Position numbers and translations under genes: made by a program. Below are positions 14,603 to 27,729 of a DNA stretch of 64,000 nt, piece after piece (the first letter of the stretch is position 1; each line of letters begins with the position of its first letter). This DNA comes from Thermoplasmatota archaeon. GTDB lineage: Archaea > Thermoplasmatota > Thermoplasmata > SG8-5 > JACRNV01. The notes under the pieces are model-generated. The model ran no database searches. It was not told the DNA's origin and saw only the letters and a list, made by a program, of their open reading frames with translations. The stretch lies in assembly GCA_040753455.1 (NCBI GenBank), contig JBFMEL010000001.1, forward strand, positions 5,810 through 69,809, in the 5' to 3' direction.

Positions 14603-15112
14603 ATGTCCTCCGGTGCGCTCCTGGGGCGCTTCCAGCCGATCCATAAGGGACACCTGTGGGTGCTGCGCAAGCTCCTCTCTGAGTGTGATGAGGCGATAGT
14701 GGTGATAGGCAGCGCGCAGGCAAGCCATGAGCCTGACAATCCCTTCTCCGCAGGGGAGCGCTACGAGATGGTGAGGGCATGCCTCTCCAAAGAGGAGATG
14801 GCAAGGGTTGCGATCGTGCCGTTGGAGGACCTGAACCGCTACCCGCTGTGGGCGGCGCACGTGCGCTCCCGCTGCCCTTCGTTCCAGAGGGTCTATACCC
14901 GCAACCCGCTCACCGCCGCGCTGTTCAGAGATGCTGGCTACGAGGTCGTGGAGCACGAGCACCACCGCAAGGAGCTGTACTCCGGCACAGAGGTCAGGCG
15001 CAGGATGATCGCCGCAGAGCCCTGGAAAGAGCTGGTGCCCCCGGGGGCTGTGCAGGTCATCGAGAGGATCAGGGGCGAGGAGAGGGTGAGGAGGCTTGCC
15101 ATCCGCAGTTGA
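14603..15112 (+). CDS. nadM: Nicotinamide-nucleotide adenylyltransferase (archaeal NadM type)
   Basis: GRFQPIHKGH signature, the archaeal NMNAT H/TxGH motif. Start at the internal ATG 14603. Confidence 0.8.
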   Translation: MSSGALLGRFQPIHKGHLWVLRKLLSECDEAIVVIGSAQASHEPDNPFSAGERYEMVRACLSKEEMARVAIVPLEDLNRYPLWAAHVRSRCPSFQRVYTRNPLTAALFRDAGYEVVEHEHHRKELYSGTEVRRRMIAAEPWKELVPPGAVQVIERIRGEERVRRLAIRS

Positions 15113-16229
15113 GGAGCTGGTAAATCTTTTGCGCTCTAAAGGGATGCGAATAGCAGTGGCTGAATCTTGCACTGGTGGACTCCTCTCAAAGATGATCGTG
15201 GATGTGCCTGGGGCATCGCGCTGCCACATGGGAGGCGTGGTCGCATATCACAACGATGCCAAGACAGCACTCTTGGGGGTGAGGTCTGCCACCCTGGAGG
15301 AGCATGGTGCAGTATCCCCAGAGACAGCGATCGAGATGGCGGAGGGCGCAGCACTGAGGTTCAGGACTGAAGTGGGTGTCGGCACCACAGGCATCATGGG
15401 TCCCGAGGGCGGGAGCGCGGAAAAGCCTGTGGGACTGGGGTACGCAGCAGTGTGCATCAGAGGGACTGCCCATTCCAAAGAACTGAGGCTTCAGGGCAGC
15501 AGGTGGGAGAAGATGCAAGCGCTTGCCGGCGCAGCACTGCAGATGGCGCTCGAAGAGATCGAGGGACTGCCTGCGACCCCCGGGCACACCCGCGTGTTTA
15601 GAATCGGAGTGCTGGCTTCAGGAGGCGGCACAGACCTCCAGAGCATACTAGATGCATGTGAATCAGGCTACATACCAGGGAGGGTGGTCGTGGTCGTGAG
15701 CAACAACCCAGATGCGTATGCGCTGGAAAGAGCTAAAAAGCATGGTGCTGAAGCGCTTTTCATAGACCACAGGGGCAAAGAGCGGGTGGAGCACGAGCGC
15801 GAGGTCTGCGACGCCCTACAAAACTATGGGGTGGAGCTGATCGTGCTGGCGGGATACATGCGCATGCTCACACCATACTTCGTGGAGCGGTTCAGGAATA
15901 GGATCATCAACATCCATCCTGCGCTGCTCCCCCTCTTCGGAGGCAAGGGGATGCACGGGCTCCATGTGCATCAGGCTGTGCTGGATGCAGGATGCAAGCT
16001 CTCGGGCTGCAGCGTGCACTTCGTGGACGAGAGGATCGATGGCGGGCCGATCATAGCGCAAAGGTGTGTGGAAGTGAGGGATGGGGATACACCAGAGACC
16101 CTTGCAGCAAGGGTGCTGGAGCAGGAGCACATCCTCCTGCCCTGGGTGGTGAGGATGTTCGCAGAGGACAGAGTGCGCCTGGAGGGCAGGAAGGTGAGGA
16201 TAATCGAGGGCGAGAGATCCCAGCCCTGA
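15096..16229 (+). CDS. Fusion protein: N-terminal CinA-C/PncC (NMN deamidase) domain plus C-terminal PurN (phosphoribosylglycinamide formyltransferase) domain
   Basis: N-terminal IAVAESCTGGLLS (CinA C-terminal domain). C-terminal VLASGGGTDLQ...INIHPALLP...GCSVHFVDE..IDGGPII (PurN/formyl-transferase). TTG start with a GAGGAGG RBS. Confidence 0.7.
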   Translation: MPSAVEELVNLLRSKGMRIAVAESCTGGLLSKMIVDVPGASRCHMGGVVAYHNDAKTALLGVRSATLEEHGAVSPETAIEMAEGAALRFRTEVGVGTTGIMGPEGGSAEKPVGLGYAAVCIRGTAHSKELRLQGSRWEKMQALAGAALQMALEEIEGLPATPGHTRVFRIGVLASGGGTDLQSILDACESGYIPGRVVVVVSNNPDAYALERAKKHGAEALFIDHRGKERVEHEREVCDALQNYGVELIVLAGYMRMLTPYFVERFRNRIINIHPALLPLFGGKGMHGLHVHQAVLDAGCKLSGCSVHFVDERIDGGPIIAQRCVEVRDGDTPETLAARVLEQEHILLPWVVRMFAEDRVRLEGRKVRIIEGERSQP

Positions 16230-16498
16230 GAAGAGAACGATAAGTTCGACCACGAGCGAATGGGTGTATCGAAGATTGGGTGATGCACCAAATTATACGC
16301 TTAATGATGACTGGCTTCACAAATAATAGCCAGAGGTAATTATGTGGTATATTCAAGGTCACTATCGAAAATTGTAATATCCGCAGACTAAATGACCTGA
16401 GTTTCCAGACCTTGGGCTGAGGATATAACCTGGCACAGTGCGCGCTTACGCCTAAGCGACATCTTAATAATCAATATAGGGATAGGGGGGGCGGTACG

Positions 16499-18418
16499 AT
16501 GGAACAGCAGACGGTAGCACTGATGCGGCTCGGTAAGAGTTCGATAGCGCTGGCTGTCCCTCCGTGGATCGTAGAAAAACTAAGGCTGGAGAAGGGCGCA
16601 GGTGTATATGTCTCGTGGGACAAGAGAAGCGGTAGGATAGCAGTCGAACCTGTCCATCGCGCAAAGGAAAGGCGCCCTCATGGCTACTGGAAGAACAAGG
16701 AGCACAGGATAAGGGCTGTGAGAGAGATGGTAGAAAAGACAGGGCTGCCGCCCTCGCGGATCACGGCCAAAGAGTTCATAGCAGCGGGTCTCCAGGCGGT
16801 CATCCACCACTGCGGTAACTCCCCTATACGGGCGCTGGAAGAGGCGGGCTACACCATTGCATATTATGGACCCGGCAAGAAGAAGCAGGTGCCACAGCGT
16901 CATTGGGACAAGCGAGAGAACAGGATAGCAGCGGTGAGGTGGCTGGTTGAACACCTCGGAAAGGCGCCCTCCCAGGTGACGGTGGATGATTTCCGGGAGT
17001 GCGAGCTCACCGGCCTCTTCGATCGCCGCATGACTGTGAGGGCAGCACTGCGGGAGGCGGGATACGATGTGCCCACCTGGCACAAGGCACCGCCCCATTA
17101 CTGGGACGACCGTGAACATAGGGTGAGGGCGATCAGGCGGATGGTGCAGCTTACTGGGGGACGTCCAGAGGCTATTACAAACAAGACGTTCAGGGCGTTC
17201 CACCTCACGGGTGTGCTCAGCCAATATTACAGGTCGATACGCAATGCCCTGAAAGACGCTGGTTATAGGGTCGAAGAGTTCTCAAAAAGGCCGCAGGGGT
17301 TCTGGCATCACCGCAAAAACAGGATCGAAGCGGTGCGCGAGATGGTGACGCGCTCCGGGAAGCCCATAGAAGAGATCACGGTGAACGATTTTCGTGAGGC
17401 TGGGATCATGTGCGTGATAAATGTATGCGGTTCCATACTAGCGGCTCTCGGTGAGGCAGGATATGCGATGAAGCCCTGGGAGCGGAGACCGATGCCCACG
17501 AGTTCTTGGCAGAGCAAAGAGCACAGGGTTGCAGCCACCAGATGGCTCGTGGAAAAGATTGGAAAAAAGCCGCTAGAGATCAACCAACGGGATTTCATGT
17601 CGCATGGTCTGGGGCGCCTGCTCAAAGCATACAGCAGAGAGCGCTGCGCCTCTTACGAGAGGGGGGATCTTTTCACAGATGAGCCGGGATACCTCCTCAA
17701 ATATCCCACACGGGTGACGAGGGCGCTCGTCGAAGCAGGTTTTGATATCAAGATCGAGGACCTTGCCGGCGCCCGGCGTTGGAAAGGGGGCGGGATCTCT
17801 AGGTACTGGAAGGAAAGGGAGCGCAGGATCGCAGTGATAAGAAAGGTGGTGGACGAGCTCGGCGATCCACGAAAGGTCTCAAGGCGTCATTTCATAGAGA
17901 GGGGGGTCACAGGGCTGCTGAAGTACTACGCCTCGTTGGAAGAGGCATTAAAAGATGCGGGATATCCACTGCACCCATGGGAACGTTCTCGGGTACCAAA
18001 CAGGTACTGGCTGGCGAGAGAGAACAGGATCAAGGCTGTCAGGTGGCTCGTCGAAAAGATCGGTGGCAACCCTCGAAAGATCATGAGGAGGGATTTCAGA
18101 GAGGCTGGGATAGAGGGGCTCCTCTCCCCTGCGGGCGGCGTACTCGGAGCTGTAAAGGAAGCGGGCTATGACCTGAAACCATGGGAATATGAGCACATGA
18201 GACCACCGAGAGATACATGGGCATCCAGAGAGAACAGAGCGGCTGCTGTGAAATGGCTGCTGGCGTCCCTGATGAAAGAGCCTTCGGAGGTAAGCAGGCG
18301 AGACTTTCGACTCCTTGGTCTCAGCAGGCTTGCGAACGAGTATGGAATACCGCGCCTTCTCGAAGAAGCAGGCTGCGAGGTAGATCGTGGAATGGGAAGG
18401 AAGGCGCCCGCGTCATAG
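16499..18418 (+). CDS. AbrB/SpoVT-like N-terminal domain protein followed by eight tandem ~66-aa repeats of an uncharacterised module
   Basis: N-terminal MEQQTVALMRLGKSSIALAVPPWIVEKL (swapped-hairpin-like). The repeat consensus is W..ENR..AVRWLVEK.GK.P..I...DF...GL.GLL.....AL.EAGY...PWE. An AT-rich promoter region and a G-rich RBS lie upstream. Confidence 0.7.
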   Translation: MEQQTVALMRLGKSSIALAVPPWIVEKLRLEKGAGVYVSWDKRSGRIAVEPVHRAKERRPHGYWKNKEHRIRAVREMVEKTGLPPSRITAKEFIAAGLQAVIHHCGNSPIRALEEAGYTIAYYGPGKKKQVPQRHWDKRENRIAAVRWLVEHLGKAPSQVTVDDFRECELTGLFDRRMTVRAALREAGYDVPTWHKAPPHYWDDREHRVRAIRRMVQLTGGRPEAITNKTFRAFHLTGVLSQYYRSIRNALKDAGYRVEEFSKRPQGFWHHRKNRIEAVREMVTRSGKPIEEITVNDFREAGIMCVINVCGSILAALGEAGYAMKPWERRPMPTSSWQSKEHRVAATRWLVEKIGKKPLEINQRDFMSHGLGRLLKAYSRERCASYERGDLFTDEPGYLLKYPTRVTRALVEAGFDIKIEDLAGARRWKGGGISRYWKERERRIAVIRKVVDELGDPRKVSRRHFIERGVTGLLKYYASLEEALKDAGYPLHPWERSRVPNRYWLARENRIKAVRWLVEKIGGNPRKIMRRDFREAGIEGLLSPAGGVLGAVKEAGYDLKPWEYEHMRPPRDTWASRENRAAAVKWLLASLMKEPSEVSRRDFRLLGLSRLANEYGIPRLLEEAGCEVDRGMGRKAPAS

Positions 18419-18569
18419 ATTCATTGGGGTGCGTATCAGTGCATCTATGCCCATCCCCATCGCCTGCTCGGCATGAAAGCGCTGGGTCTTCCCAGTGATA
18501 TCGAGATGGGCAGCTCTGCGGCCCCTACACTCGCTTGCCCGGCATGAAAGCGCTGGTCTCCTGTGTGGA

Positions 18570-23919: not shown

Positions 23920-24501
23920 GCAAGCGCATAGCCCATTGATGATAAAAATCTATCGAGATATGGAGATCTGCCCTCTGTGCATAGTATCTCGCATTCCATG
24001 CAACGACCTTTGAGATGTGCATCTCCACCTGCAGGATTCCGTGCCCGACCACTCGTCACCAGCGCATTCCATGCAACGACCTTTGAGAGCAGGTCAACGA
24101 TCCCACGGGCAGGTTTCAGGGCAACATCTTTTTATAATCAGAACCCCTCTTCACCACGCTAGGCTCGACCGGGGCGCTCGGCGTGCCCTTATACACCGAA
24201 ATCGTCGATAGCGGGGGTGACAGCTGAGGGCGGCGTAACCTGCCCTGCACGCGCCCTGTGCTCGACTATGAGACCCTGTCCTGCCGGGCGGGTGGCGGCT
24301 CTGCGGCGCAGCCGGAGGGCGGCGCCCTCTGCCCTGATCGTGGGGAACGGGTCAGGCCCTGACGGGAGCAGCCTAACCACGGATTACCTGCGCTGGCAGG
24401 GTTGCGGGGTCGAGAAGAGCACAGACATCCGCGCGCAGGAAAGGGCGACCACCTCAGCGGCCTAGCTCCCATCATATAATCAACACCAGGCCGCTGATCA
24501 A

Positions 24502-27617: not shown

Positions 27618-27691
27618 GGGCCCGTGGGGTAGTCCGGACATCCTTTCGGCCTTCGGAGCCGATGACCCGAGTTCGAATCTCGGCGGGCCCG
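27618..27691 (+). tRNA. tRNA-Arg (anticodon TCG)
   Basis: Manual cloverleaf fold. Acceptor GGGCCCG/CGGGCCC. Anticodon stem TCGGC/GCCGA with loop CTTCGGA. T-arm CCGAG-TTCGAAT-CTCGG. Confidence 0.85.
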
Positions 27692-27729
27692 CTTACCCAC
27701 AACCCTTATAATCCACGCGCGCATACTAA

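Follow-up and report, generated by a model that had tools for sequence, protein, structure and literature searches.

Introduction

The closest described relatives of the protein considered here belong to the Pfam family PF18780 (HNH_repeat, 'Homing endonuclease associated repeat'), whose members carry arrays of 3–5 or more repeat units, joined to a nuclease in some of them. Examples include proteins annotated as HNH endonucleases in Halobacterium hubeiense pSTJ002 (WP_143416477.1) and Halomicrobium salinisoli (WP_226023636.1), together with repeat proteins of Bacillus plasmids and of Haloarcula pNG100. No experimental work on PF18780 was found in the literature, the sole mention being a structure-modelling survey. 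In this study, we analyzed the complete gene of a 639-amino-acid repeat protein, AB1665_00120, which lies in a 64,000-nucleotide stretch of DNA (hereafter, the window) from a Thermoplasmatota archaeon (GCA_040753455.1, contig JBFMEL010000001.1, positions 5,810 to 69,809 of the forward strand). We find that its repeats are divergent relatives of PF18780 and propose that the protein, which carries no nuclease, is probably a multivalent DNA binder with a regulatory or architectural role.

Modular homing endonucleases offer a second comparison. I-Bth0305I is an EDxHD (Vsr-like) homing endonuclease with two NUMOD DNA-binding modules and a C-terminal nuclease (PMC3239194). The nuclease is likewise C-terminal in the nuclease-bearing relatives of AB1665_00120, but these carry 4–7 PF18780-type repeats instead of the two NUMODs, have no detectable sequence-level similarity to 3r3p, and are encoded by genes that look free-standing rather than intron-encoded; AB1665_00120 itself has no nuclease altogether. 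By analogy, its closest counterparts in mode of action would be the arms with which modular homing endonucleases bind DNA (the NUMODs of I-Bth0305I, I-TevI and I-HmuI), here moved onto a transcription-factor head.

That head leads to the swapped-hairpin factors of the AbrB/SpoVT/MazE family (PF04014), which are homologous to the N-terminal 60 amino acids of AB1665_00120 by way of a homologue, P0003. Domains of the AbrB/SpoVT type dimerize through a swapped hairpin and so form a DNA-binding unit. Known PF04014 members are small (about 50–100 amino acids, or this plus one C-terminal domain), whereas the head of AB1665_00120 is followed by ~580 amino acids of repeats.

Architecture of the protein

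The gene is an intact reading frame that starts at the first ATG following a stop codon (Table 1), and its product is identical in sequence to the protein listed at NCBI, from a metagenome-assembled genome (MAG), as 'hypothetical protein AB1665_00120 [Candidatus Thermoplasmatota archaeon]'. A 60-residue head is followed by eight tandem units that run up to the C-terminus, and head and repeats together cover amino acids 1–638. The unit anchors, of the form W-x2-(K/R)-E-(N/H)-R, stand at amino acids 64, 136, 202, 269, 337, 437, 504 and 574, which gives periods of 72, 66, 67, 68, 100, 67 and 70 amino acids. A hidden Markov model (HMM) of the family repeat, run against the six-frame translation of the window, recovered the same eight units at 52–83 bits (E 1e-17 to 1e-27) and no additional unit elsewhere in the 64 kb. 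The eight-unit architecture is far beyond chance. The eight repeats claimed in the original prediction, which had been made from the sequence alone, are thus confirmed by both the anchors and the HMM, and the consensus it gave matches the one derived independently here, xGYWxxKENRxxAxRxLVxxxGKxPxxITxxDFxxxGLxGLLxxYxxSxxxALxEAGYxxxPWE.

The protein is strongly basic, with a pI of 10.1 and a net charge of +43 (122 K+R against 79 D+E), and every one of its eight units has a net positive charge. Scans of Pfam, NCBIfam, PADLOC and PHROGs found neither an HNH domain nor a nuclease domain of another family in it. PADLOC and PHROGs gave no credible family for the protein; its whole-protein Pfam and NCBIfam matches to Frankia_peptide, DUF7541, XH and PRK02122 were all under the cutoffs and were taken as noise from the E-A-G-Y helix.

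Homology of the repeat module to PF18780

Taken as a whole, the protein reaches 30.9 bits on PF18780 (E 3.4e-7; cutoff 26), a score that is the sum over its units, and PF18780 is also among the precomputed Pfam entries of the identical database protein. When single units of the family were searched, PF18780 was the Pfam family most often matched (7 of 84 units at E <0.1, the best at 1.6e-4). Members of PF18780 were gathered with a probe based on the canonical motif, which led to haloarchaeal and Bacillus plasmid genes. Five verified PF18780 proteins score 208–375 bits with 3–5 units each, and two of them, both haloarchaeal, have HNH nuclease domains. An hhalign comparison of the 84-unit family profile with the 20 units of these five proteins gave a probability of 92.6% (E 4.4e-7) over positions 3–53 of the 53-residue canonical unit. 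The real pair scored 32.6, while the controls, the reversed profile and 20 column-shuffled profiles, reached at most 14.7 in score and 3.5% in probability. The summed PF18780 score and the hhalign result with its clean controls indicate that the repeat module is homologous to PF18780, but as a separate, longer and divergent archaeal branch.

Several features are common to the two kinds of unit, namely helix 1, the G-(K/R)-x-P stretch, a short helix pair and the A-L-x-x-A-G-(Y/L/F) motif. The units of AB1665_00120 differ in their length (66–72 amino acids, against 48–54 in canonical PF18780), in an extra conserved G-Y-W-x-x-K-E-N-R start and P-W-E linker, and in having Y-x-x-S where the canonical unit has F-G-S-W (motif F-G-(S/T)-(W/F)-N). 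An HNH domain, typical of PF18780 proteins but not obligatory, is missing from AB1665_00120, and some of its relatives carry a Vsr/EDxHD-like nuclease. Whereas PF18780 proteins are plasmid- or phage-borne, the branch described here is chromosomal and archaeal (Thermoplasmatota and other archaea). Thus, the earlier view of the module as undescribed stands for the distinct longer branch and falls for the family to which this branch is related. The Pfam search proposed at the time finds PF18780 at the level of the whole protein, with single units below the cutoff. Of the confident match to a Pfam family of known function that had been named as the result contradicting novelty, one half was found: the family is known, and no experimental work on it was found.

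On Bacillus plasmids of ~145 kb (e.g., NZ_CP083581.1; L008), the PF18780 probe gave 18–20 separate matches, and adjacent genes there consist almost wholly of 4–5 canonical repeats without a nuclease domain. These repeat-only genes indicate that nuclease-free PF18780 arrays also occur in bacteria.

Predicted fold and conservation of the units

Unit 7 was modelled with AlphaFold2 from the 84-unit alignment, with a predicted local distance difference test (pLDDT) score of 84.7, and shows helices at residues 7–20, 30–36, 39–45, 48–54 and 61–67 of the unit. The model suggests that each ~68-amino-acid unit forms a compact bundle of four or five helices around a helix-turn-helix (HTH)-like core. The best structural matches of one unit, weak ones, are the N-terminal HTH domains of the TetR family, on which modelled helices 1–4 superpose over 50–55 residues. 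A fold search of BFVD gave no match at E ≤0.001, and a sequence search of all PDB chains with the repeat profile and the canonical PF18780 profile found nothing meaningful. Within the unit, R10 is nearly invariant (80 of 84 family units), as is, to a lesser degree, a K or R at positions 7, 15 and 23, which is conserved. Variation is greatest at positions 30, 34–36, 39, 43 and 45, which map to modelled helices 2 and 3, and the third modelled helix bears a conserved hydrophobic G-L-x-G-L-L motif.

Units 1 and 3–8 each pair with one collinear unit of the relative P0002 (its units 3 and 5–10) at 53–68% identity, and with one matching unit each in P0003 and P0004 at 45–68%, against roughly 30–47% for non-corresponding units. 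Unit 2 has no clear positional match in any of the three. Since the units are positionally conserved across relatives, the array must be old and its units individually constrained, while the number of units among the close relatives is 8, 9, 9 and 10.

P0002 is a 735-amino-acid paralogue with 10 units, apparently from the same MAG as AB1665_00120, judging from its AB1665 locus-tag prefix. It begins with 'MCPIDEKRGRSAIELD...', which resembles the end of an AbrB-type head and may reflect either a misannotated start or a truncated head.

Unit 5 contains an insert of 25 amino acids (amino acids 380–404, RERCASYERGDLFTDEPGYLLKYPT), which did not appear in the earlier description of the repeats and is strongly conserved among the closest relatives. 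In these, the insert has the motif C-x-x-Y-E-x-G-x-x-F-T-x-x-P-G-Y-L-L and occurs in one unit per protein. The insert-bearing unit is also present in P0002–P0011, P0014 and P0064, where it may be the middle, first or last of the array. The subfamily that bears it comprises 12 of the 157 family proteins inspected, and among GTDB species representatives the insert-repeat signature was found only in two Thermoplasmatota MAG contigs. The insert is a marker of a close Thermoplasmatota subfamily.

The AbrB-type head

The head of AB1665_00120 does not match PF04014 by itself (amino acids 1–63, E up to 1), and amino acids 1–60 reach no Pfam model. It does, in contrast, align with the P0003 head (43% identity, E 3e-16), which scores 33.4 bits on PF04014 against a cutoff of 24.7 and is named an AbrB/MazE/SpoVT family protein by NCBI. 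The AbrB-like N-terminus of the original prediction is thus supported indirectly, and the assignment appears sound but transitive. The AbrB head is a rare accessory of the family, being present in 2 of the 157 proteins examined, namely AB1665_00120 and P0003.

Size of the family and its partner domains

A word-indexed protein search revealed 18 family proteins; when the repeat alignment or the head plus the first unit (133 amino acids) was used in such a search, no matches were obtained, probably owing to the limit of the word index. When 1.84 billion cluster representatives (clusters at 50% identity) were searched exhaustively with the repeat profile, 1,455 matched at E ≤0.001, 670 at 1e-10 and 237 at 1e-30. 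Among the 157 family proteins that were inspected, the arrays have 2–13 units, four being the commonest number, and 46 proteins consist of the array with nothing else attached. Arrays without a nuclease make up the majority of the family.

Partner classes were defined by clustering the non-repeat extensions of the family proteins. In some relatives, such as P0013, a Vsr/EDxHD-type nuclease is attached to the array; this partner domain is assigned to the Vsr-like PD-(D/E)xK fold, of which it keeps the E, D, H and D residues, and the C-terminal nuclease-like domain of the relatives has no match in Pfam. In P0118 and P0057, sigma-70 regions lie N-terminal to the array (region 2 in both, and regions 3 and 4 also in P0118), and the sigma-like fusion matches phrog_351, 'RNA polymerase sigma factor', at 70.7 bits. 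P0112 combines the array with winged-helix domains, and P0016 combines it with DUF6015. A sigma-like factor would be unusual in an archaeon; P0118 is encoded at L010:5001–7040, next to DUF2582 and SLFN_AlbA_2 genes, which is consistent with either an archaeal or a bacterial host.

The two commonest N-terminal partner domains are represented, for example, by P0083 and P0024 and by P0012 and P0026. One of the common partners carries F-x-x-W-L-x-x-F-F-I-x-x-G-x-Y-K-I-T, and the other ends in F-W-I-x-Q-G-W-Y. The latter class, with its 'GG-x-K-I-P' stretch, was considered as a second AbrB-like head; this was not supported, hhalign giving a probability of 3.7%, barely over the shuffled controls.

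No phage relative was found by tblastn of AB1665_00120 against phage genomes, and viral contigs scanned with the nuclease domain of the relatives gave no match. A scan of viral contigs with AB1665_00120 itself matched only a different repeat of ~45 amino acids that has just the starting 'GYWKNKEN' in common with its unit, and this match was set aside as a probable motif coincidence. This repeat is present three times in a 175-amino-acid protein encoded on two IMG/VR contigs, L013 (3791–4318) and L014, of 121 kb and 388 kb. Its motif is W-K-N-K-E-N...E-F...Y-G-Y-I-D-D-M-D-W-L, for which distant kinship and coincidence are both possible.

Genomic setting

AB1665_00120 lies among housekeeping genes, at a location with no intron, intein or mobile element (features of the locus are given in Table 1). 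Genes for an aspartyl/asparaginyl-type tRNA synthetase, an aldehyde dehydrogenase, a cytidylyltransferase and a CinA-formyltransferase fusion lie upstream; a convergent radical SAM gene, a flavoprotein oxidoreductase and an isochorismatase gene lie downstream. The gene directly upstream (15096–16229) encodes CinA (competence-damage) and formyltransferase domains in one 377-amino-acid product, an apparently unusual combination. The archaeal origin of the window was confirmed by an archaeal signal recognition particle (SRP) RNA (153 bits) at 24157–24467 and a tRNA-Arg (TCG) at 27618–27692. The loci of six relatives likewise carry archaeal markers (TBP, tRNA-intron endonuclease, proteasome, exosome, RadA) or belong to Methanomassiliicoccales/Thermoplasmatales MAGs.

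The spacer upstream of the gene had been described as an AT-rich promoter region unusual for this genome. Its low GC content is real, being the lowest among intergenic gaps of at least 100 bp in the window, and it holds the lowest-GC 200-bp stretch of the window (0.405). Five more local dips below 0.47 occur in the window, however, and AT-rich promoter regions are normal in archaea; the low GC content of the spacer does not point to anything out of the ordinary. It presumably holds the promoter, for which a TATA-like TTAATAAT at 16464–16471 and a G-run at 16485–16491, just 5' of the ATG, are candidate elements. A search of the spacer for repeated DNA sites, as candidate autoregulatory targets, gave two short two-copy matches compatible with chance.

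Downstream of AB1665_00120, the 151 bp that separate its stop codon from the convergent radical SAM gene on the minus strand contain a 26-nt direct repeat (18460–18485 and 18531–18556), whose copies are 92% identical and 71 nt apart and have a 17-nt exact core, CGGCATGAAAGCGCTGG. This core is absent elsewhere in the window (0.2 chance matches expected). A 13-nt imperfect inverted repeat (18448–18460 and 18500–18512) is placed between the copies of the direct repeat.

Table 1. Features of the AB1665_00120 locus, in coordinates of the window.
Feature	Position	Strand	Remarks
AT-rich intergenic spacer, presumed promoter	16230..16498	+	269 bp, GC 0.442 vs 0.579 for the window
Complete gene	16499..18418	+	639 aa plus stop
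AbrB/MazE/SpoVT-like head (aa 1–60)	16499..16678	+	homology to P0003 head
Repeat unit 1 (aa 61–133)	16679..16897	+	family HMM 81.4 bits
Repeat unit 2 (aa 133–199)	16895..17095	+	82.0 bits; best lone PF18780 match, 15.2 bits
Repeat unit 3 (aa 199–266)	17093..17296	+	best-kept positional orthologue, 67–68% identity to matching units in P0002, P0003, P0004
Repeat unit 4 (aa 266–334)	17294..17500	+	family HMM 81.5 bits
Repeat unit 5 (aa 334–433), variant	17498..17797	+	25-aa insert aa 380–404, nt 17636–17710, RERCASYERGDLFTDEPGYLLKYPT
Repeat unit 6 (aa 434–501)	17798..18001	+	family HMM 73.0 bits
Repeat unit 7 (aa 501–570)	17999..18208	+	83.1 bits; unit modelled by AlphaFold2
Repeat unit 8 (aa 571–638), C-terminal	18209..18412	+	family HMM 55.5 bits

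Discussion

In relatives of AB1665_00120, the array is combined with a nuclease, with regions of sigma factors or with winged-helix domains; because of these partners, the repeats are probably the DNA-binding part of the protein, and not the head alone. The PF18780-type units may be the DNA-recognition modules of plasmid HNH enzymes, and in those members of the archaeal branch that have a Vsr/EDxHD-type nuclease, the array most likely acts as its DNA-recognition arm. AB1665_00120 lacks a catalytic domain and has an AbrB/SpoVT-type head on its array. From this we infer DNA binding by the repeats and dimerization through the head, which would yield a dimer displaying 2 × 8 basic HTH-like units along a long stretch of DNA, and a cellular role of this dimer in regulating transcription or, as a nucleoid-associated protein, in DNA architecture. 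AB1665_00120 is not a homing endonuclease, as it has no nuclease of any of the LAGLIDADG, HNH, GIY-YIG, His-Cys, PD-(D/E)xK and EDxHD types and no mobile context. The original prediction, in which a DNA-binding head carried repeats of a scaffold or nucleoid-associated factor, is partly supported overall: the association with DNA gains support, and the emphasis shifts from the head to the repeats.

Several points weigh against DNA binding by the array. Single units remain below the PF18780 cutoff, the best reaching 15.2 bits (E 0.027) and the other seven giving no match, and no experiment or solved structure was found for either PF18780 or the family of AB1665_00120, so that DNA binding would be assigned to both through guilt by association. 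Neither of the two most frequent N-terminal partners (~22 and ~25 of the 157 proteins) has a Pfam match. In the model, the conserved hydrophobic G-L-x-G-L-L helix seems atypical for a recognition helix that reads bases. The head, for its part, is connected to PF04014 only through P0003, and no conserved gene neighborhood or operon partner was found across AB1665_00120 and the six related loci.

Some of these observations would fit better with repeats that form a protein–protein scaffold, a helical-repeat solenoid in which only the AbrB head touches DNA and tethers partners to loci. The G-L-x-G-L-L helix resembles a packing or partner surface more than a DNA reader, the match of the unit to HTH domains is weak, and the conserved W...PWE/P-x-G-Y-W junctions, together with the short fifth helix of the model, could fix the units as a rigid rod; the fusions to sigma-factor regions could equally mean recruitment of the transcription machinery. 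Against a scaffold, every unit is net basic, in a protein of pI 10.1, and homologues of the array are found on HNH nucleases, while in relatives a Vsr-like nuclease is joined to the array itself. Such nucleases depend on an arm that directs them to their DNA target, as I-Bth0305I does (PMC3239194). Moreover, 46 of the 157 family proteins have nothing but the array, which must then be active by itself. We regard the scaffold, which the original prediction had also raised, as unlikely, while it is the alternative that survives best.

The preferred reading of a multivalent DNA-binding protein also has a stronger form, in which DNA would be recognized in modular fashion by the ~68-amino-acid units. 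The variable positions of helices 2 and 3 would let each unit read a short segment, and arrays of 2–13 units with varied effector heads (Vsr-like nuclease, sigma-like regions, winged helix, AbrB and the two unknown domains) would target long specific sites, AB1665_00120 being the transcription-factor version. We consider this quite unlikely at present, and a code of one unit to one site is pure speculation. TALE, PUF and PPR arrays and the organellar HPR/OPR-RAP arrays are likewise built of many tandem helical units with variable surface positions; this is a likeness in design and not shown homology, and the unit size and fold differ from those of AB1665_00120. The RAP proteins combine repeats with a Vsr-like domain, as do the nuclease relatives described here. 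By analogy with such organellar helical-repeat proteins ending in a Vsr-like RAP domain (FASTK, HPR, OPR), the array might bind RNA instead, which we hold to be improbable.

Two further explanations concern the history and the head of the protein. As AB1665_00120 has no nuclease domain where relatives have one, and as the number of units varies in its close relatives, it could be the decaying and now functionless remnant of a homing endonuclease. This is very improbable: the frame of 639 codons is intact and none of the units is degenerate, and seven of the eight have a positional orthologue (45–68% identity) in three other proteins, one of which is apparently a second copy in the same MAG. 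In addition, the gene has gained a DNA-binding head and stands in a housekeeping neighborhood with no intron, intein or mobile element, and nuclease-free arrays are the majority of the 1,455-cluster family. Finally, an antitoxin-like regulator, whose head would work like that of a type II antitoxin, with the repeats as a neutralizing or sensing extension, is scarcely credible, as the naming of PF04014 for MazE antitoxins is countered by the absence of an adjoining toxin gene (the CinA/formyltransferase fusion being upstream and the convergent radical SAM gene downstream), by a length of 639 amino acids, many times the known antitoxin size, and by the lack of any PADLOC family match.

Conclusions

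The significance of AB1665_00120 depends on which of these readings is true. If the repeats prove to be a protein scaffold, this is a routine repeat protein, and HTH-like repeats on a DNA-binding head would be no surprise to specialists; what is noteworthy is the size of the unannotated family, the second nuclease partner and the sigma-like fusions. If the modular-recognition form were true, the repeats would represent a new family of composable DNA-targeting scaffolds, of much higher interest. If, as we favor, AB1665_00120 is a nuclease-free DNA-binding protein, then a large archaeal family has so far been concealed under the name 'hypothetical protein', and one repeat module would serve as a general DNA-targeting arm for a homing-type nuclease, sigma-like regions, a winged-helix domain or an AbrB head. 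The uncharacterized PF18780, a family of HNH enzymes of plasmids and phages, would then also extend to regulators encoded on archaeal chromosomes. The protein would be a candidate for long-site DNA recognition, in which nuclease-associated modules have been reused in a transcription or chromatin factor.

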